From an uncultured Eubacteriales bacterium (lineage in GTDB: Bacteria > Bacillota > Clostridia > Oscillospirales > Oscillospiraceae), in NCBI GenBank assembly GCA_900549545.1, contig URPA01000001.1, positions 27,275 to 91,274 on the forward strand: a DNA stretch of 64,000 bases. The letters run 5' to 3'. Position 1 is the stretch's first letter. Each line of letters starts with the position of its first letter. Positions 1 to 57,325 of the stretch are shown piece after piece. The notes beneath the pieces were generated by a model. That model did not search any database. It was given only the letters and a program-made list of their open reading frames with translations, and was not told the origin of the DNA. A program made the position numbers and the translations under genes.

Positions 1-20
1 CCCACACCGAAGCGCACCAA

Positions 21-347
21 ATGGCCTATGATTTTTCGGTGTACCTTCATGAGAAAATGAAGAAATTTCCGCACTATGAAAAATTCACGCTGCAAAAGGA
101 TATTCGGGAAAGTATCGACGGAATACTGGACGAAATAGAAATGTTTGAGATCACAAAGGTAGCAAGTCACCTATACGCGGCCGACCGCTTAAAAAGACGA
201 CTGGTACGAAAGATCCGGCTTGCTTACGATCTGGGATATTCGGCCATGAACAAAGACGCCTATTTCTATTGTGCCAAACAGACCGGAGCGATCGGCGCGC
301 AGATCGGCGGCCTGATAAAGTCGATCGCAGAAAATAAGAGAAAATAA
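21..347 (+). CDS. avd: DGR accessory variability determinant, Avd-like four-helix-bundle protein. The true start may lie upstream of the window edge.
   Basis: 108 aa with KKFPxxEKF, LAYDLGY and GLIKS motifs typical of the Avd/four-helix-bundle family. It sits directly upstream of a template-repeat-like segment and a DGR-type RT. The reading frame stays open back to position 3. Confidence 0.55.
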   Translation: MAYDFSVYLHEKMKKFPHYEKFTLQKDIRESIDGILDEIEMFEITKVASHLYAADRLKRRLVRKIRLAYDLGYSAMNKDAYFYCAKQTGAIGAQIGGLIKSIAENKRK

Positions 348-376
348 TAAAATTTGGGGCAACCGTTAATTCGCAC

Positions 377-515
377 TTCACGCGCTCATTGGCGGCGGCA
401 ATTGGAACAACGGCGTTCACGACGGTTCGCGCGCGGTCAACGCCAACAATTACCCGTGGAACGTCAACGGCAACATTGGCGTGTGGTGCGTGTGTGACTT
501 GTAAAATCGCATAGA
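377..515 (+). repeat. DGR template repeat (TR), approximate boundaries
   Basis: Non-coding spacer between avd and the RT. One frame reads LIGGGNWNNGVHDGSRAVNANNYPWNVNGNIGVWCVCDL followed by a stop. This resembles the C-terminal variable segment of C-type-lectin-fold DGR targets, with in-frame AAC codons at the expected variable positions. Confidence 0.6.
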
Positions 516-669
516 CCGCGCGATCTCCGGATCCACGGCAAGGGTTATATATGAATAATCAAAATATATAGTCAGACGGTTCGCACAGACGGCCGGAAGG
601 CCGTTCCCGTTCCGGAGAGAAGCCGGACAAAAGAACAAAGGCACCGCCGAAAAGTAGGCCTGAAATGGG

Positions 670-1725
670 GTGAAATGCGGTAGGGCAAACATGAAAACAA
701 TTAAAAACTTAATAGGTAAAATCTGTACTTTCCCGAACGCGATCAAAGCGTACATGAAGGCCCGGAAATGTAAAAGGCTTCGCCCGGAAGTGTTGGAGTT
801 TGAACAGAACAGGGAAGACAACCTTCAAAAAGCAATAGACGCCATACAAAGCGGTGACTATACGCCGGGAAAGTATAGAATTTTCAAAGTGTGGGAGCCA
901 AAAGAAAGAATTATTATGGCGCTTCCGTTCTTCGATCGTGTAATTCAACACATGATCGTAAATATTATTGAACCGATTTTTGAAAAGCGGTTCATTTTCC
1001 ATTCATACGCCTGCAGGAAAGGGAAGGGCGCGCACGAAGCAAGCGACACCCTTTCAAAATGGCTTTATGAACTGGAAGTGGTACAGGGGAAGAAAATCTA
1101 TGCAATAAAGGGAGATATACACCACTATTTCCAGAGCGTAGCGCACGACGTATTAAAGAAAGAGATCCGGCGGTATATTTCAGATAAAGCACTTTTGAAA
1201 ATTCTGGATCGGATCATAGATCACAACGGCATTTTCCCGCCGGGCGTGGGAATACCAGTCGGGAACCTTACTTCACAGTTATTCGCGAATGTATACTTGA
1301 ACAAACTGGATCAATATGTAAAACACGTCCTGAAAATAAAATATTATGTTCGCTATATGGACGATTTTATAATATTATCAGAGGATCCGGAAGAGTTGCG
1401 GCACGTTCTGGAACTGATAGAAGAATTTCTTCGCCGGGAATTAAAACTGGAACTGAACCCGAAGACAACGATCCTTGCAGCAAAGAACGGAATAAACTTC
1501 GTAGGGTATATTCACTTCAAAGATCACAAGAGGGTAAGAAAGGACGCCATGCGGCGCCTAAAGAAATTATTAAAAGCCTTCGACACCGGGGAAGTAGAAC
1601 TGGAAGACTTCGATCGTTCAATCGAAAGCAGGTTCGGCCACATGAAACACGCAGACAGCTATATTTTGATAGAGGAAACACAGGAGAAAATAAAAGAAAT
1701 CAAGGAAAGGAAGGCGTCGGCCTGA
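670..1725 (+). CDS. diversity-generating retroelement reverse transcriptase
   Basis: 351 aa. RT motifs are present, including YVRYMDDFII (YxDD). The DGR-specific motif-4 signature IPVGNLTSQLFANVYL is present, with SQ in place of the QG seen in group II intron and retron RTs. The size is typical of DGR RTs. An alternative start is at 691. Confidence 0.8.
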   Translation: MKCGRANMKTIKNLIGKICTFPNAIKAYMKARKCKRLRPEVLEFEQNREDNLQKAIDAIQSGDYTPGKYRIFKVWEPKERIIMALPFFDRVIQHMIVNIIEPIFEKRFIFHSYACRKGKGAHEASDTLSKWLYELEVVQGKKIYAIKGDIHHYFQSVAHDVLKKEIRRYISDKALLKILDRIIDHNGIFPPGVGIPVGNLTSQLFANVYLNKLDQYVKHVLKIKYYVRYMDDFIILSEDPEELRHVLELIEEFLRRELKLELNPKTTILAAKNGINFVGYIHFKDHKRVRKDAMRRLKKLLKAFDTGEVELEDFDRSIESRFGHMKHADSYILIEETQEKIKEIKERKASA

Positions 1726-1777
1726 AAACAGGTCAGAAATTGCCGCCCTTTCCTTTTATTATCTTTATAAAAGAAAG

Positions 1778-2278
1778 GTGGTGAAAAACATGGAAAAGTT
1801 AATTCATATCTATGCGGAAGCAGCGGGAAACACATTTTTGCAGTTAGTTTTGATCGCGGTGGTGATTGATACGATTTTCGGAGTTCTTCGCGCGATCAAG
1901 GAAAGAAGGTTCAATTCTAATTTCGGGATCAACGGCGCGATCAGAAAATGCGGAATGTTAGTTTGCCTTCTTGCACTGGTTACGGTGGATCATATTGTAG
2001 CGGTAAACCTGATCGGTTTCATTCCGCAGGAAGTGCGCGCAGTAATGGCGGTAGACAGGATCGGAACAATGGAGTTCTTCGCGATCCTTTTTGTAGCCTA
2101 TGAGATCATAAGCATTTTGAAAAATATGTATCTTTGCGGCCTTCCAGTAAAGAAGATCTGGCAGACTGTAAAGGCATTTCTGCAGAAGTACACAGACGAA
2201 CTTCCGACAGACGAAGAAGCGGAAGAACCGGAAACACTGGAAGAGACAGCAGCGCAGGAAGAAGGGGCGGCAAAATGA
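1778..2278 (+). CDS. phage holin (holin family 4_1 / LL-H-like); alternative start at 1790
   Basis: 166 aa with an N-terminal hydrophobic segment and an acidic C-terminal tail. It lies immediately upstream of the endolysin, and its stop overlaps the endolysin start (ATGA). Confidence 0.65.
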   Translation: MVKNMEKLIHIYAEAAGNTFLQLVLIAVVIDTIFGVLRAIKERRFNSNFGINGAIRKCGMLVCLLALVTVDHIVAVNLIGFIPQEVRAVMAVDRIGTMEFFAILFVAYEIISILKNMYLCGLPVKKIWQTVKAFLQKYTDELPTDEEAEEPETLEETAAQEEGAAK

Positions 2279-4083
2279 CGAAAAAAGAATTTGTTTCACT
2301 GTTAGGGGAGCAGGCCCGCGCCGATATGGCGAAAACGGGGATCCTTGCAAGTCTCACGACAGCGCAGGGAATACTTGAAAGCGGGTATGGTACAAGAGAA
2401 CTTGCAGTGAACGCGAATAATATTTTCGGAATGAAAGCCGAACTTTCCGGCAATAACTGGCCGTCCGATTGGGGCGGCCAGACCTACACAAAGGAAACGA
2501 ACGAACAGAAGCCGAACGGCGAAGTCTACACAATAACGGCAGCGTTCCGAAAATATGAGAGCATGGCCGAAAGTATCAAGGATCATTCCGATTACTTAGC
2601 AGGAGCGAAGCAAGGGAACGATCTTCGATATGCGGGACTTGTGGGCGAAAGAGACTACAAGAAAGCGATCCAGATCGTAAAGGCCGGCGGCTATGCGACG
2701 GACAATAATTACGTTTCAAAAATATGTTCCATTATAGAAAAATGGAACTTGACACAGTACGACACACAGGAAGCGGGGCAGAATATGAATATTAAAATCA
2801 TTGACGCAACCATGAAGAAAAGCCCGTGTTTAACAGGCGGGCGCACGATCGAACCGATCGGCCCTTATCTTCATTCTATCGGTTGCCCTTGCGAAAAAGC
2901 AATAAGCATAATTAACAATGAGAACCGCGCAGACGCCGGCGCAGGCGTTCACGCGGTTATTCAGCACACCGGGGAAGTTTACGTGGGACTTCCGATCGAT
3001 CCGGAAAAGAAAACGGCCGTTAGAAACTGGCATGGTGGCAGCGGACCGAAGGGAAGTTGTAATAATACCCATATCGGCGTAGAAATGACAGAGCCGGCCA
3101 CGATTAAATATACCGGCGGCGCGTCGTGGATCGAACTTTCAGACGGTAGCAACACGAAGGCGGTTGTTCTGAAAAATTATAGAAACGCCGTGGAATACTT
3201 CGCGTATTTGTGCCAGAAGTTCGGGTGGAACCCGGAGAAAGACGGCGTTATTCTTTCCCATTCGGAAGGACACGCCCGCGGGTATGCCACAAACCACGCA
3301 GACGTTGAACATATTTGGAAAAAGTACGGCCTGACAATGGACCAGTTCAGAAAGGACGTAAAAGCAGCCATGGCAGGCGACGCCATTTCGGTTTCAGGAT
3401 CGCCCGCGGTGACAGACACGGGCGCGCAGGGCGTGAAGGCGCTTTCTGGTACGGTAACGGTAATTTACACCGGATCCGACGACTTGAACGTGAGAACAAC
3501 GCCTTCGTTTACTTCCGGAAATGTGAAGAAGGTTGTAAAAAATGGCGCAGCCTTCACGGTTACCGGAATTTCCAAAGACGAAAAATGGTACCAGATCAAC
3601 GACGGCGGGGCAGCGGCCTATATAACAGCCGTTCCGGACTATGTTTCATTCAAGGCAACACCGGAACAGAAGGCAAGCACAGCGGGAACCGGTTATTTCA
3701 GAGTAAGGAAAGACTGGAAGGACGCGGCAAGCCAGATCGGAGCCTTCAAGGATAGAGAAAACGCCGTGGAACTGGCAAAGCAGAACGCCGGTTATTACGT
3801 CTTTGACAATGACGGAAACAGGATCTACCCGGAAGCACCGGCGGCGCCGGTTGCTGCAGAATACAAAGTGAACGTGACGACTTCGGATCTTCGTATCAGG
3901 AAAGGACCGGGAACAACGTTCGACTACTGGAAGAAAGAAGGAAAACCAGTCTACACAGGAAAGGGAACCTTTACAATCGTAGAGGAAGTAGAAGGCCCCG
4001 GCGCTTCAAAATGGGGCTTACTGAAAGCCTACGCCGCAGGCCGTAACGGTTGGGTTTCCCTTGACTACGCAAAGAAAGCGTAA
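2275..4083 (+). CDS. phage endolysin with three parts: an N-terminal glucosaminidase (LytD/FlgJ-like), a central amidase_2 (PGRP-like N-acetylmuramoyl-L-alanine amidase), and C-terminal SH3b-like wall-binding repeats
   Basis: Start ATG 2275 overlaps the holin stop. The upstream extension in the ORF track (from 2134) overlaps the holin in another frame. Domain-level sequence similarity supports all three parts. Confidence 0.8.
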   Translation: MTKKEFVSLLGEQARADMAKTGILASLTTAQGILESGYGTRELAVNANNIFGMKAELSGNNWPSDWGGQTYTKETNEQKPNGEVYTITAAFRKYESMAESIKDHSDYLAGAKQGNDLRYAGLVGERDYKKAIQIVKAGGYATDNNYVSKICSIIEKWNLTQYDTQEAGQNMNIKIIDATMKKSPCLTGGRTIEPIGPYLHSIGCPCEKAISIINNENRADAGAGVHAVIQHTGEVYVGLPIDPEKKTAVRNWHGGSGPKGSCNNTHIGVEMTEPATIKYTGGASWIELSDGSNTKAVVLKNYRNAVEYFAYLCQKFGWNPEKDGVILSHSEGHARGYATNHADVEHIWKKYGLTMDQFRKDVKAAMAGDAISVSGSPAVTDTGAQGVKALSGTVTVIYTGSDDLNVRTTPSFTSGNVKKVVKNGAAFTVTGISKDEKWYQINDGGAAAYITAVPDYVSFKATPEQKASTAGTGYFRVRKDWKDAASQIGAFKDRENAVELAKQNAGYYVFDNDGNRIYPEAPAAPVAAEYKVNVTTSDLRIRKGPGTTFDYWKKEGKPVYTGKGTFTIVEEVEGPGASKWGLLKAYAAGRNGWVSLDYAKKA

Positions 4084-4148
4084 AACGTAACTATCGACAG
4101 TTCATGAAAACCCCTTGAAAGTCAAGAAAAAAGGAAAATATATCACCG

Positions 4149-4180
4149 AAACCCCGTCAATAAAAGGCGGGGTTTATTAT
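4149..4180 (+). terminator. rho-independent terminator after the endolysin
   Basis: Stem aaaccccg/cggggttt (8 bp) with an 11-nt loop, followed by a T/A-rich run. Confidence 0.55.
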
Positions 4181-4191
4181 TTAAAAAAATA

Positions 4192-4241
4192 TAACATATT
4201 CCGGAATATATATTGACATATTCCGGAATATGTTATATAAT
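4192..4241 (+). promoter_or_regulatory. consensus sigma-70-type promoter (TTGACA - 17 bp - TATAAT) embedded in two direct copies of a 14-bp perfect palindrome, atattccggaatat. Putative operator.
   Basis: TTGACA at 4213-4218 and TATAAT at 4236-4241, with an exact 17-bp spacer. Palindrome copies lie at about 4196-4209 and 4219-4232 and overlap the -35 element and the spacer. Confidence 0.65.
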
Positions 4242-4298
4242 AAAGACAGTTAAGGAAGACTTAACGAATACATGGGCAAGCATAGAAAGGAGAACAAC

Positions 4299-4430
4299 AT
4301 GAGCGAAATGGATAAAAAGGAAATAAAAGAAGTCATAGAATGGTGTGACGAAAAGGGGCATAGCGAACATGAAATCTTAGAATTGATAAGACGAATTGTC
4401 GACGCGAAGCCGCGAGAAGAAAATGAATAA
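4299..4430 (+). CDS. hypothetical 43-aa protein, below the ORF-track length cutoff
   Basis: ATG at 4299 lies 7 nt after a GGAG-type Shine-Dalgarno (aaaggagaacaac). The product is MSEMDKKEIKEVIEWCDEKGHSEHEILELIRRIVDAKPREENE. It is the first gene downstream of the operator-promoter. Confidence 0.45.
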   Translation: MSEMDKKEIKEVIEWCDEKGHSEHEILELIRRIVDAKPREENE

Positions 4431-4511
4431 GAAATAAGGGACACAGAAAGGGCGGTGGACTTGCCAAAGCCGCCCGATCCGTTAAATTCATTATAAAAGG
4501 AATAAGACAAA

Positions 4512-4733
4512 ATGGCAAGAGCAAAGAACGAAGAGTTTAACCAGATTAAATATCAGAACGAATTTAAGAAGGCAAATTATGATCGCGTGGAAATCCTTGT
4601 GAAAAAAGGAGAAAGGGCAATTATAAAAGAAATAGCAGCAGCAGCAGGACAAAACGTAAGTGAATATATAAATCAGGCGATAAAAGAAAGAATGGAACGC
4701 GATCAGCGCATGACGGCAGAAGAACAGGAATAA
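4512..4733 (+). CDS. ribbon-helix-helix (CopG/Arc/MetJ-like) DNA-binding protein
   Basis: 73 aa. The pattern RVEILVKKGERAIIKEIAAAAGQNVSEYINQAIKERM shows a beta-strand followed by two helices, typical of RHH proteins. Confidence 0.6.
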   Translation: MARAKNEEFNQIKYQNEFKKANYDRVEILVKKGERAIIKEIAAAAGQNVSEYINQAIKERMERDQRMTAEEQE

Positions 4734-4806
4734 TAAAAAGGACTATATAACAACGGGCGCCGGCCTTTCCAATCTGGAAGGGATAGCGCCCGCTGTGGTT
4801 ATATAG

Positions 4807-5796
4807 TTATCCTTCAAGTACAAGATCATAGAATACATTTTCGGAAAGTATTTCTATGTCGTGGCCTTTGAGGATCAGATCTTCGGCCTTTTTCTGCTTG
4901 TTGCTTTTCCCATCCTTGATAGACTGGCAAAAGTCATTATTACCCAAAATTAAATAGTTCGTTTTCTTCGTGACATTATCGCCAACAGAACCGCCAAAAT
5001 CAACGACTAATTGCATAGCGTCTTTACGCGACATTTTTTCAAGTGTTCCAGTGAACACACACACTTTACCAAAAAGCGGGTGAGAGGTATCGAAAGAAAT
5101 GTTTTCCGTAGAAATATCTTTAGCGTGCAGTTCGCTTCTTTTACTGGATAATTTGAAATCTTCGAGACTTTGTCCGGTGGCTAAAATATCGGCTTGCAAT
5201 TTTTCAAAAATGGCGTTGCATATTTCACAATCAACGGCCGCCCTATGAGCGCCGGCGGTAGAAATTCCGTAATGATCGGCAACGGTTGCTTGCTTATGAT
5301 TTTTTAGACCAGGAAGAATTTTCCGCGCGATCCGCATAACATCAATAAAGGAGTTTGACAAAATAAGCGAGCGACAGTTCAGAAGATTGTCATATAAAAA
5401 GTTAATATCGAAGTTGACGTTATAGCCAACAATAAGATCGGAACCAACGAAATTATAAAATTTTTGCATAGTTTCTGAAATATCCGGGGCGCTTTTCAAC
5501 ATATCGTTCGTAATGCCTGTAAGTGAAGTTATGTATTCGTCGATAGGTTCGGAAGGCTTCACAAGTGTTGAAAAAGTACCGATATTTTGGCCGGAAGAAT
5601 ATTTCATGGCCGAAATTTCAATAATTTCACAGTAACGCGGATCAAGGCCGGTCGTTTCAATGTCGAGTACGGTATAAGTAGAAGGAAAATCTATAACGCT
5701 TTTCCCCTTACCTTTTCGCACGACTTTTTCACGCGATCCGTCGGAAGTGGTGATATACGGGCGTCCGTCTTCGTCAATACCAATAGAAATAAACAT
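4807..5796 (-). CDS. DEDDh 3'-5' exonuclease (DnaQ/epsilon-like) fused to a C-terminal BRCT domain
   Basis: Exo I motif VLDIETTGL, Exo II YNVNFDINFL and Exo III HRAAVDCE give an intact DEDDh set. The C-terminal GKVCVFTGTLEKMSRKDAMQLVVDFGGSV...NYLILGNN segment resembles the LigA-type BRCT domain. Confidence 0.75.
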   Translation of the reverse strand: MFISIGIDEDGRPYITTSDGSREKVVRKGKGKSVIDFPSTYTVLDIETTGLDPRYCEIIEISAMKYSSGQNIGTFSTLVKPSEPIDEYITSLTGITNDMLKSAPDISETMQKFYNFVGSDLIVGYNVNFDINFLYDNLLNCRSLILSNSFIDVMRIARKILPGLKNHKQATVADHYGISTAGAHRAAVDCEICNAIFEKLQADILATGQSLEDFKLSSKRSELHAKDISTENISFDTSHPLFGKVCVFTGTLEKMSRKDAMQLVVDFGGSVGDNVTKKTNYLILGNNDFCQSIKDGKSNKQKKAEDLILKGHDIEILSENVFYDLVLEG

Positions 5797-5879
5797 ATTT
5801 TGTTCCCCCTTGCGGTTAGATTTTTAAGGGCAGCAGGTAGAAAAGTTCGCGTTGCTGACCTTTAGCACAATTTTAGAAA

Positions 5880-5924
5880 CTTTATGTGTTAAAGTCAAGA
5901 AAGTTTCTGAACATTAACACATAA
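5880..5924. promoter_or_regulatory. inverted-repeat operator in the divergent intergenic region
   Basis: A perfect 12-bp inverted repeat: tttatgtgttaa at 5880-5891 and ttaacacataaa at 5913-5924. An inner inverted repeat, agaaacttt / aaagtttct, lies between them. The right arm overlaps the XRE Shine-Dalgarno. Confidence 0.55.
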
Positions 5925-5938
5925 AGGAGCCGCAACGA

Positions 5939-6187
5939 ATGAAAATATATTCATACAGGGGAAAGAAGAACCTTTCCGGTGATAAAATCAGGGAAGCCAG
6001 ATTGAAACAACGCCTTTCACAATCTGATTTAGCGGCAAAAGTACAGATTGCAGGCGTGACACTTGAAAGGGATAGCATAAGCCGGATCGAGATAGGAACC
6101 CGCTTTGTCACTGATTATGAATTAAAAATTTTTGCAAAAGTTTTACACGTAAATGTGGAATGGTTGTTGGAAGAAACCGAAGAATAA
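5939..6187 (+). CDS. XRE-family helix-turn-helix transcriptional regulator
   Basis: 82 aa with an HTH_3 pattern (LKQRLSQSDLAAKVQIAGVTLERDSISRIEIG). Confidence 0.75.
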   Translation: MKIYSYRGKKNLSGDKIREARLKQRLSQSDLAAKVQIAGVTLERDSISRIEIGTRFVTDYELKIFAKVLHVNVEWLLEETEE

Positions 6188-6220
6188 CGCCGGGGCTATA
6201 ATGGCCGCGGCGTTATTTTT
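6186..6220 (+). terminator. rho-independent terminator after the XRE gene
   Basis: Stem aacgccg/cggcgtt with a GC-rich interior, followed by ATTTTT. Confidence 0.5.
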
Positions 6221-6235
6221 GAAAGGATCGAAGCC

Positions 6236-7276
6236 ATGAGACATTTTTACCACCTGACACATGATGATAGAATAAAAATTGAAGCACTTTTGAAAGAAAA
6301 ACACACACCGAAAGAAATTGCAAATAATATCGGTTGCCATATTTCTACAATATATAGAGAACTGAAACGCGGCAGGTATGAACACCGCAATTCTGACTGG
6401 ACAACAGAAGAACGGTACAGTCCAGATATAGCGGACGAAAAATACCGGGAAAATTTGGCCGCAAAAGGTCCGGGGCTAAAAATTGGAAATGATATAGAAT
6501 TAGCGGAGTATATCGAAAATAAGATTGTGAATGAAAAATACTCACCGGGAGCAGTATTAGGAGAAATCAAACACAAGGGAATTACGTTTTCTGTTACAAT
6601 AAGCAAAACGACACTTTATAGTTATATAGACAAGGGAATTTTCCTTCATTTGACAAATAAAGATTTGCCGGTAAAGAAGAATGAAAAAAAGAAATATGAT
6701 AAAGTGCGCAGAACACGGGCGCAAAAGGGCGACAGCATAGAAAAACGCCCGGAAGTAGTAAATACAAGAGAAACGTTCGGACATTGGGAAATGGACACAG
6801 TAGTTGGACTTCGGGGGAAATCGAAAAAATCACTTCTGGTATTAACGGAAAGAAAAACAAGAAAAGAAATCATCATGGAATTAAAACGGCATACGGCCGC
6901 GGAAGTAGTTAAATCATTAAATAAGCTTGAAAGAAAATGGGGAAAAATGTTTTACAAGGTATTTAAAACAATTACCGTTGATAATGGATCGGAATTTGCG
7001 GACTTTGAAGGAATGGAGAAGGCAGCGCGCAGAAAAGGAAGCAGAGTGAAATTATATTATTGTCACCCATATAGCAGTTGTGAAAGGGGGTCAAATGAAA
7101 ATCAAAACAGAATGATCCGGCGGCACGTACCTAAAGGGACAGATTTTGACACGGTGTCCGGCGACACAGTAAAACAGATAGAGATCTGGATCAATAACTA
7201 TCCGCGCCGGTTGTTTAACTATGGAACAGCCGAAGAGCGCTTCAACGAAGAAATGGCAAAGTTAGAAGGTTGTTGA
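6236..7276 (+). mobile_element. IS30-family transposase gene. The inverted repeats of the IS element were not resolved.
   Basis: 346 aa with an N-terminal HTH. The DDE region reads GHWEMDTV ... TVDNGSEF ... NENQNRMIRR, as in IS30 transposases. Confidence 0.8.
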
Positions 7277-7390
7277 ATATGCACAAAAAAGCAGAATGGA
7301 AATTGTGAAAAAGAGAGAACACAAAAACCAGTGATATTTTTCGCATTTAACGCTTGACTTTTTATTTTGAAAAATTTTGCCGAAAAATGA

Positions 7391-7419
7391 TTGACAAATC
7401 ATAAATCATCCTTTATAAT
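7391..7419 (+). promoter_or_regulatory. consensus promoter for tRNA-Leu
   Basis: TTGACA at 7391-7396, a 17-bp spacer, and TATAAT at 7414-7419. Confidence 0.55.
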
Positions 7420-7449: not shown

Positions 7450-7533
7450 GCAGAAGTGGCGGAATTGGCAGACGCGCACGGTTCAGGTCCGTGTGGTAGT
7501 AATACCTTGTGGGTTCGACTCCCATCTTCTGCA
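7450..7533 (+). tRNA. tRNA-Leu(CAG), class II with a long variable arm. CCA is not encoded.
   Basis: Hand-folded. The acceptor arms GCAGAAG and CTTCTGC pair. The anticodon loop is ttCAGgt. A long variable arm is present. The T arm reads GTGGG-TTCGACT-CCCAT. Confidence 0.75.
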
Positions 7534-7544
7534 CTGGTTCATGG

Positions 7545-18659: not shown

Positions 18660-18932
18660 CAAGGTCGCACTAGTCGGGGAGATAGCGGTGCCCTGTGACC
18701 TGCAATCCGCTATAGCAGGGATGAACTCCCATACCCGGGTTCGTGCTGTTTTGCTGTCCGAATAAGCGGTGTTGAGGCATCGGTCTTGCGCAACGGGCTC
18801 CCGTGAACCATGTCAGGCGGGGAACCGAGCAGCATTAAGCGGATCTGTCCGTGTGCCGCAAGGACGCCGCTGCTGAGCTGGCTGTTCGGGAAACGGAAAT
18901 GGTTCCGGATTCAAATATGGGTGTGCGATCTT
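18660..18932 (+). ncRNA. ffs: signal recognition particle RNA, Bacillus-type long form with an Alu domain (scRNA/ffs). Ends are approximate.
   Basis: Matches B. subtilis scRNA as recalled from memory. The segment gtcggggagatagcggtgccctgtgacctgcaatccgctatagcaggg matches the 5' domain. The segment ccatgtcaggcggggaaccgagcagcattaagcgg matches the conserved domain IV. Position upstream of dnaX, as in Firmicutes. Confidence 0.8.
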
Positions 18933-56975: not shown

Positions 56976-57325
56976 GGGGATGTAACGGTTTCGACGGGGG
57001 CGCGGAGGCAGAAATAGCGGGCGGATGCGCCTACCATCCATAAAATGGGCAGCTTTTATAAATTAAAGAACGACGATAATACTGTTCTTCTCGCTGCTTA
57101 ATTAGCGAGCGTCTGACCCGGGAGGACCACGGCCCGGGATCGGGCGTCGATTAGTGGTGCCCGTGAGTGCGCAAAGCTTTGAGCGCACCACGCATAATGA
57201 AGCTACCAAGCCCCGCAGCGTGACGGCCTGCGGCGGGGTGAGGGAATGTAAATGACCGTCTGCGCCCGGAGAAGTTTCTGTTAAAGTACTTTCGGACGGG
57301 GGTTCAACTCCCCCCATCTCCACCA
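56976..57325 (+). ncRNA. ssrA: tmRNA (SsrA), one-piece
   Basis: 5' GGGGAUGUAACGGUUUCGACGGGGG pairs with the 3' tRNA-like end GGACGGGGGUUCAACUCCCCCCAUCUCCACCA. An internal tag reading frame ends in LAA-stop. Immediately downstream of smpB. Confidence 0.85.

Follow-up and report, generated by a model that had tools for sequence, protein, structure and literature searches.

The 64,000-nucleotide (nt) stretch of DNA analysed here, referred to as the window, derives from an uncultured Eubacteriales bacterium (contig URPA01000001.1) and carries part of a diversity-generating retroelement (DGR) at its left edge. The components of this element are arranged in the order mtd-like target gene, with the variable repeat (VR) at its 3′ end and located to the left of the window, followed by avd (accessory variability determinant), the template repeat (TR), a spacer (Sp) and the gene for a reverse transcriptase (RT). 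The portion beyond the window edge was read from a reference scaffold (L001; ENA ERZ28596962), a metagenome scaffold of 410,673 nt that was found among contigs encoding exactly the same RT and that matches the window without a single difference across the 11,725 bases shared by the two. Positions in L001 are converted to window positions by subtracting 9310. Coordinates given without a prefix refer to the window, and those of the element lie on its plus strand.

Genes of the retroelement

The RT gene (691–1725) codes for a protein of 344 amino acids that matches Pfam RVT_1 (E = 6e-24) and PHROG 1423 (E = 1.8e-128). Among proteins of solved structure, its best relative is the 328-amino-acid chain of PDB entry 8ub7, with which it aligns over residues 4–329 at 189.5 bits (E = 7.2e-55), whereas group II intron RTs score at most 69 bits (best E = 4.5e-18) and retron RTs approximately 23 bits. 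An earlier reading made from the letters of the window alone (the sequence-only reading) had described an open reading frame (ORF) at 670–1725 with a YMDD box and a DGR-type motif 4 containing SQ, and all of these are present. The catalytic YMDD box occupies 1354–1365, motif 4 reads VGNLTSQ at 1258–1278, and the longer stretches GNLTSQLFANVYL and VGNLTSQLFANVYL are encoded by 1261–1299 and 1258–1299, respectively. The start codon is most likely the ATG at 691 rather than the alternative GTG at 670, because gene calls on 10 contigs use the former and because the alignment with 8ub7 begins at residue 4 as counted from it.

We take 8ub7 to be the RT of the Bordetella phage (bRT) on the basis of its length of 328 residues and of the residue numbering used by Handa et al. 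(10.1101/2023.10.23.563531), who reported the cryo-electron microscopy structure of the Bordetella phage RT-Avd-RNA complex and listed its RNA elements; a literature search for accession 8ub7 found no citing paper. The SQ motif of the RT aligns with the bRT motif IGSLTSQLFANVY, and the residues aligned with K29, F66, R74, I76, the IGSLTSQ motif and the catalytic D215/D216 of bRT are conserved. Neither a maturase/X domain nor an endonuclease domain is present in the protein. Judging from these alignments, the RT is of the DGR kind and groups with DGR RTs rather than with those of group II introns or retrons. Its nearest relative among isolated phages is encoded by Bacillus phage BalMu-1 (44% identity), and its identity to the RT of Clostridium phage Saumur is 42%. 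Database records for genes of this sort often carry the name ‘retron-type RT’.

Directly upstream lies avd (1–347), identified by matches to PHROG 3206 (‘Avd protein of DGR’, E = 1.3e-15), Pfam bAvd (E = 1.8e-9) and NCBIfam DivGenRetAVD. The sequence-only reading had placed an Avd-like gene at this location, and the only correction needed is that the gene is cut by the window edge. The ORF within the window spans 21–347 in a frame that stays open through to position 1, and gene calls on contigs L001 to L010 place the beginning of the full gene either 10 nt (118 amino acids) or 67 nt (137 amino acids) to the left of position 1. The gap between avd and the RT gene measures 343 nt when the ATG at 691 is used, compared with the 320 bp given by the sequence-only reading.

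The target gene (L001:8081–9193) is located directly upstream of avd and encodes a protein of 370 amino acids. This protein matches the PDB structures of Mtd, the tail-fibre protein of the Bordetella phage, over residues 37–368 (2iou and 1yu0; E = 2e-16), as well as Pfam mtd_2nd (E = 8.7e-33), FGE-sulfatase, which is a marker of the C-type-lectin fold, and the PHROG category ‘tail protein’ (E = 5e-72). By these matches the target is a full-length homologue of Mtd. Its gene closes a siphophage tail module that includes a tape measure protein, an SPP1-type Dit and a Sipho_Gp37-type protein, and by analogy with Mtd the target would serve as the receptor-binding protein of the tail. A hypervariable receptor-binding protein had been expected nearby from the window alone, and this gene fits that expectation.

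Differences between the two repeats

The TR (372–498), which is 127 nt long and contains 26 adenines, was delimited by its homology to the VR and duplicates the 3′ end of the target gene in an invariant, untranslated form. The sequence-only reading had noticed, in the space between avd and the RT gene, a segment of approximately 130 bp resembling the variable stretch of C-type-lectin DGR targets with in-frame AAC codons. This segment was indeed found: the peptide LIGGGNWNNGVHDGSRAVNANNYPWNVNGNIGVWCVCDL* is the exact translation of 385–504, and its reading frame includes seven AAC and two AAT codons in addition to a few other codons with adenines. All but one of the 26 TR adenines fall at codon positions 1 or 2.

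No VR is present on either strand of the 64-kb window, as judged by repeat finding and by an adenine-masked scan in which the best match at the non-adenine TR positions was 49 of 101, which is at background level. The VR is instead located at L001:9058–9184, or 253 to 127 nt to the left of window position 1, where it forms the last 127 nt of the target gene before the final three codons and covers the last 42 codons. The TR copy lies 624 nt downstream. In L001, the VR and the TR are 89.8% identical, and 12 of their 13 mismatches in 127 positions fall at TR adenines.

The same comparison was extended to 17 contigs that carry the phage at 95–100% identity. Mismatches between TR and VR fall at TR adenines in 208 of 215 cases (97%), although adenines make up only 26 of the 127 positions (binomial p = 4e-132). 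The earlier proposal that a VR with adenine-restricted mismatches should exist is therefore borne out by L001 and by the wider set. The changes at TR adenines comprise 135 A>G, 43 A>T and 30 A>C. Sixteen distinct VRs were observed among the 17 contigs, whereas the TR is identical in 13 of them. Every TR adenine except A497 varies in at least one contig.

Polymorphism was also counted by alignment column in the nine closest contigs. Within this set, 29 of 127 columns are polymorphic in the VR, compared with 2 of 127 in the TR, 8 of 977 in the rest of the mtd-like target gene and 1 of 1035 in the RT gene. All of this variation is between contigs of different samples. Hypervariability at the population level is thus confined to the VR, and the differences that separate it from the TR are adenine-specific. 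Information flows in one direction, with an invariant TR and a hypervariable VR. In addition, many distinct VRs occur where the RT gene differs at only 1 of 1035 columns, and therefore the diversification of the VR is recent relative to the divergence of the phage. Randomization of the adenines would affect 15 codons and thus 15 residues, giving approximately 1.6e14 protein variants without any stop codon being reachable.

Non-adenine mismatches were found at TR positions 389, 416, 426 and 443, among others, in contigs L001, L002, L004, L092, L094 and L096. A further contig, L005 (Logan ERR13652669), carries at 5800–6841 a deletion of 532 nt with a 3-nt overlap at its junction. This deletion takes out the VR, the hairpin downstream of it and the 5′ end of avd, such that the TR and the RT gene are left without a target, and it may be either a real variant or an assembly artefact.

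The repeat also has distinctive features at its 3′ end. Positions 476–496 of the TR, the last 21 nt of the repeat before TGAC, contain no adenine, and this adenine-free 21-mer (TTGGCGTGTGGTGCGTGTGTG) is identical at the TR/VR 3′ end of DGRs whose RTs are only 58–60% identical (L146, L153, L155, L158 and others). Its identity suggests that the end of the repeat at which complementary DNA (cDNA) synthesis and homing would begin is under strong constraint. When the same 21-mer was searched for by exact match in IMG/VR contigs of up to 37 kb, only the TR and the one VR were recovered in each contig, and no second VR is present in the window either.

Fifteen nucleotides past the end of the TR/VR homology, the target locus carries a hairpin (GGGGCGCCC-GAAA-GGGCAGCCCC; L001:9200–9222) with nine base pairs, one bulged A and a GAAA loop, for which folding as DNA gives –12.2 kcal/mol. 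GC hairpins occupy the equivalent location in 19 relatives (RTs 57–84% identical), where the stems differ in sequence and yet stay complementary, the loops are GAAA, GGAA or GGGA, and in most cases an A is bulged from the 3′ arm. Guo et al. 2011 (PMC3240598) established experimentally that the Bordetella phage DGR requires a target hairpin with a GC stem of 7–10 bp and a 4-nt GRNA loop located 4–34 bp from the VR, and observed such hairpins in other phage DGRs as well. By its sequence, the hairpin described here matches this rule.

RNA elements flanking the template repeat

Folding of single sequences with RNAduplex gave uninterpretable results for the pairings of the TR and of the upstream region with the spacer, and therefore a comparative alignment was used. 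This alignment contains 21 relatives with RT identities of 57–100%. It begins a short way 5′ of the TR, omits the central part of the TR and ends where the RT gene begins. It delimits a spacer RNA of 192 nt between the TR and the RT gene (499–690). The spacer begins with an interrupted stem-loop with a UCCG tetraloop (516–538) that resembles the Avd-binding stem-loop of the Bordetella phage RNA, followed by an AT-rich hairpin (546–570), the strand GTCA (571–574) and the spacer strand of a long-range duplex (575–581 plus 605–608). The two parts of this strand are separated by an inserted, lineage-specific hairpin with a GGAA loop (589–604). Farther downstream are another stem-loop (611–627), an A-rich single strand (628–640) and a terminal conserved region (641–686) that ends just before the RT start codon.

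The long-range duplex is formed with an upstream strand at 356–367 (GGGGCAACCGTT), which was recognized by RNAalifold and by counts of paired positions and is the analogue of one side of the avd:Sp ‘cPRT Stop’ duplex. For this strand, 99% of the alignment cells are paired, and three of seven pairs show compensatory changes (AU to GC and CG to UA). Without any guidance, RNAalifold proposed the 361–367:575–581 duplex, the inner stem of the stem-loop that follows the TR, the AT-rich hairpin and the 611–627 stem-loop. When the helices are assembled into a scheme of 34 base pairs, 90.9% of the cells are paired, compared with 77.3% in column shuffles and 31–55% when the 3′ partners are slid along the alignment, and 21 of the pairs show changes on both sides. 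None of 500 shuffles reached the observed number of paired cells, the number of pairs or cells changed on both sides, or the covariation score, whereas two of 500 reached the observed count of further pair types. The helices around the TR are thus supported by covariation, and the elements are as in the RNA of the Bordetella phage DGR.

Two further assignments are made by analogy with the pairing TR118–121:Sp53–56 in the Bordetella phage. The sequence TGAC at 495–498 would form the TR side of a template:primer duplex with GTCA at 571–574, and both strands are invariant in the 21 relatives, such that covariation is uninformative for this duplex. On this basis, A574 is predicted to be the priming adenosine, located at AGTCA|GA and two nt before the spacer strand of the stop duplex, and G494 is predicted to be the first templated base. 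Given that A497 lies 3′ of this initiation site, its position would explain why it alone among the TR adenines never varies.

The region that includes the inserted hairpin (582–604) is variable in length and sequence. It is absent from most relatives, is present in L138 and L139 (alignment A2, columns 161–208) and holds longer inserts in L101 and L012. By splitting the stop duplex, the lineage-specific hairpin could tune the initiation or the termination of cDNA synthesis. A scan for promoters and terminators around the cassette gave counts no higher than those in shuffles, and no Rfam family was matched in 1–7400.

Interpretation, phage carrier and known relatives

On the basis of these characteristics, we are highly confident that the locus is a functional Bordetella-phage-type DGR of a temperate siphophage that is integrated in the chromosome of a gut Clostridia species. 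In the mechanism that we propose, an RNA transcribed from the end of avd through the TR and the spacer would fold around the RT-Avd complex, and a spacer adenosine, predicted to be A574, would prime cDNA synthesis on the TR from approximately G494. Synthesis would proceed toward the 5′ end of the TR and stop at the duplex formed by 356–367 with 575–581 and 605–608, and the RT would misincorporate nucleotides opposite template adenines. The mutagenized cDNA would then replace the VR, with targeting provided by the adenine-free, GC-rich 3′ end of the VR and by the GC hairpin with its GAAA loop 15 nt downstream. As a result, 15 codons of the C-type-lectin-fold tip would be randomized, which would let the phage keep pace with receptor changes in its host. 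Analogy is the basis for the priming and stop sites, for the route of homing and for the binding of a receptor by the target, and it is presumed that the element is active at present in the lysogen.

Several observations weigh against this interpretation, or against parts of it. The Avd matches are modest, with a Pfam bAvd score of 38.4–38.5 bits that is slightly under the gathering cutoff of 40, and a DivGenRetAVD score of 40.7 bits that is well under the cutoff of 80. Seven of the 215 mismatches between TR and VR are not at adenines (four T>G, two C>A and one C>G), and these could be ordinary mutations or rare RT errors at other template bases. The helices of the 34-pair scheme were proposed from the same alignment that was used to count them, and the priming and stop sites rest on pairings that are invariant or analogous. 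The invariance of A497 could instead result from selection on a conserved C-terminal Asp. Finally, the VR variation that was measured is variation between samples.

This last point, that the measurable variation is all between samples, is also what would be expected if the locus were a DGR by descent that is now silent in the lysogen, with the VR differences recording past activity. In Faecalibacterium prophages, DGRs were reported whose VRs showed no variation among the reads when sampled (PMC11792537), and the 532-nt deletion in L005, which removes the VR, would be another sign of such a fate. Against this scenario, all parts are intact in the window and L001, including uninterrupted avd and RT genes, the YMDD box, the TR, the target hairpin and the spacer helices, and the many distinct VRs are found among contigs whose RT genes differ at just one column. 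We therefore give a silent element only a slight chance.

Even less credence is due to the proposal that the RT is that of a retron, of a group II intron or of an abortive-infection/defence system and has the repeat nearby by coincidence. Its basis, apart from the ‘retron-type RT’ names of database records, is a set of NCBIfam matches to the group II intron RT/maturase model (148 bits), Drt3a and retron RT models, all of which are far below their cutoffs (300 bits for the intron model). The far higher score with 8ub7 and the domain content of the RT speak against it, as does the finding that Rfam shows neither an intron RNA nor an msr/msd. Moreover, an adenine-specific pair of TR and VR is foreign to systems of these kinds. 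Comparably negligible is the chance that diversifying selection or recombination at the receptor-binding tip made the VR hypervariable with no reverse transcription. Phage receptor-binding tips often do become hypervariable in that manner, but here 97% of the differences fall on TR adenines, a nearly invariant and untranslated copy lies 624 nt downstream, and the changes avoid non-adenine positions, synonymous third positions included. This pattern reads as the signature of mutagenic retrohoming, and on the sequence evidence it excludes ordinary diversifying selection or recombination.

The carrier of this Bordetella-phage-type DGR can be followed to the right of the RT gene, where all features are on the plus strand unless noted. 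A holin gene (1790–2278; Pfam Phage_holin_4_1, E = 4.7e-21) and a gene for a glucosaminidase/amidase/SH3 endolysin (2275–4083; Pfam Glucosaminidase, 6e-33, and Amidase_2, 1.3e-10) are followed at 6236–7276 by an outward-facing gene for an IS30-family transposase used as the phage integrase (Pfam HTH_38 and rve; PHROG 4646 transposase, 4.5e-141). Aligned over its full length, this protein shares 60% identity both with the integrase of Faecalibacterium phage FP_Lagaffe and with the transposase of Clostridium phage Saumur, and no other integrase was found between the lysis genes and the prophage end. That right end is located at 7364, 88 nt past the transposase gene, where phage DNA and flank diverge. 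The phage DNA is common to contigs L002, L003, L092 and L095 as far as this point (around L001 position 16674), beyond which each continues into unrelated sequence. Overall, five contigs diverge exactly after 7364, with phage DNA that is at least 96% identical and five unrelated flanks of 31–52% GC, which indicates insertion by the transposase at many sites, possibly in different hosts. The sequence-only reading had proposed a complete mutagenic-homing cassette on a prophage. The prophage is evident from the tail genes upstream and from the holin, endolysin and IS30-type integrase genes downstream, but the cassette is not complete within the window, given that the target and the VR are off its left edge.

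The 17-mer at the right end of the prophage was also used to look for an inverted copy, and a single copy of it was found per IMG/VR contig, in contigs that do not include the left prophage end. Between the lysis genes and the integrase are a minus-strand gene (4807–5796) for a DnaQ-like exonuclease fused to a BRCT domain and a plus-strand gene (5939–6187) for a small HTH_3 (Cro/cI-type) regulator, and the genes at 4807–6187 probably form a lysogeny or accessory region of the prophage. Beyond the prophage, a host tRNA-Leu(CAG) gene (7450–7534) begins 86 nt from the prophage end, and the host also encodes a large (Firmicutes-type) signal recognition particle (SRP) RNA (18665–18928) and a transfer-messenger RNA (tmRNA; 56976–57325). 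The only Rfam matches in the window are to host tRNA, SRP RNA and tmRNA. The GC content of the host DNA is approximately 56%, compared with approximately 46% for the phage.

The phage is widespread. The cluster at 90% identity to which its RT belongs has 7165 members in public assemblies, and its integrase protein recurs unchanged in at least 1000 contigs. Among genomes that carry the prophage, the closest bears the label Lachnospiraceae bacterium MGYG-HGUT-00092. A megablast search against 50,697 phage records found no isolated phage that matches at the nucleotide level, and the relatives are recognizable at the protein level only. By its gene content, the carrier belongs to the temperate siphophages that use an IS30-family integrase, in the Lagaffe-like or ‘IScream’ class.

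A more tentative idea, which we consider rather unlikely, is that diversification of the Mtd-like tip lets one phage lineage (DNA identity of at least 96%) lysogenise taxonomically different gut Clostridia. This idea is based on the presence of the lineage at five or more insertion sites with flanks of 31–52% GC. If it were true, VR genotypes should sort by host and not by phage phylogeny. As a natural example of a Bordetella-phage-type DGR the locus is a clean one, and it belongs to a prophage lineage that is abundant in the human gut. It links a DGR to an IS30-mobilised phage that is found in many genomic contexts, and it offers two resources: a set of sixteen naturally occurring VR variants in a nearly constant sequence context, and a DGR RNA map that is supported by covariation and includes predicted priming at A574 and initiation at G494.

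Compared with the prototype DGR of phage BPP-1 (mtd-avd-TR-brt), the element has the same gene order, with the TR between avd and the RT gene and the VR at the 3′ end of the target gene. The target is homologous to Mtd over its full length, the RT shares the motif-4 sequence xGxLTSQLFANVY with 8ub7, and in both systems the VR is followed by a GC hairpin whose loop is GAAA (PMC3240598). The RNA elements also correspond, each to one counterpart. The Avd-binding stem-loop of BPP-1 would be equivalent to 516–538 with its UCCG loop, the template:primer duplex to spacer GTCA and TR TGAC, and the avd:Sp ‘cPRT Stop’ duplex to the pairing of 356–367 with 575–581 and 605–608. Likewise, the stem-loop with its A-minor adenosines and Thumb Ring would match the 611–627 stem-loop and the adenosine-rich strand, and the bRT-binding stem-loop would match the terminal region at 641–686.

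There are also differences. BPP-1 is a podophage of Bordetella, whereas the phage described here is a siphophage whose Dit is of the SPP1 type and whose host is a Gram-positive anaerobe of the gut. The upstream strand of the stop duplex is located in the 24-nt gap between avd and the TR rather than inside avd, the spacer measures 192 nt rather than 140 nt, and an extra GGAA-capped hairpin is inserted in the spacer strand of that duplex. The TR/VR homology ends abruptly at 498 without a recognizable 21-bp IMH/IMH* (initiation of mutagenic homing) pair, and the Avd match is weak, with no PDB match at E ≤ 1.

Closer relatives are FP_Lagaffe (Lagaffevirus), whose DGR with an Mtd-like target and Avd and whose unusual IS30-type integrase were described in 2018 (PMC5883640), and Saumur. 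Both show the same order of Mtd-like target, Avd, TR, RT, lysis genes, small genes and IS30-family integrase, but differ from the prophage described here in that holin and endolysin are swapped and a nucleotide-level match is absent. Lagaffe-type prophages have a second VR (PMC11792537), whereas no second VR was found here in the window or in the IMG/VR contigs of up to 37 kb. The ‘IScream’ phages, which are IS30-mobilised gut prophages named in 2025 (Nature, PMC12823448), carry a full-length, outward-facing IS30-family transposase at one prophage end instead of a tyrosine or serine integrase, as is the case here. The definition adds a second, truncated and inward-facing IS30 at the other end, and that end of this prophage lies more than 10 kb to the left of the window. 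The likeness extends to the near-identical phage DNA that adjoins at least five unrelated flanks and to its very common occurrence in gut metagenomes. A 2026 preprint (PMC12934698) describes DGRs with C-type-lectin tail targets in one group of IS30-mobilised phages. The RNA elements have been published before, and so have DGRs that diversify Mtd-like targets in gut phages of the Lagaffe-like kind. The present locus leaves current understanding unchanged, being a DGR of the ordinary Bordetella-phage type in a class of gut prophages that is already known.

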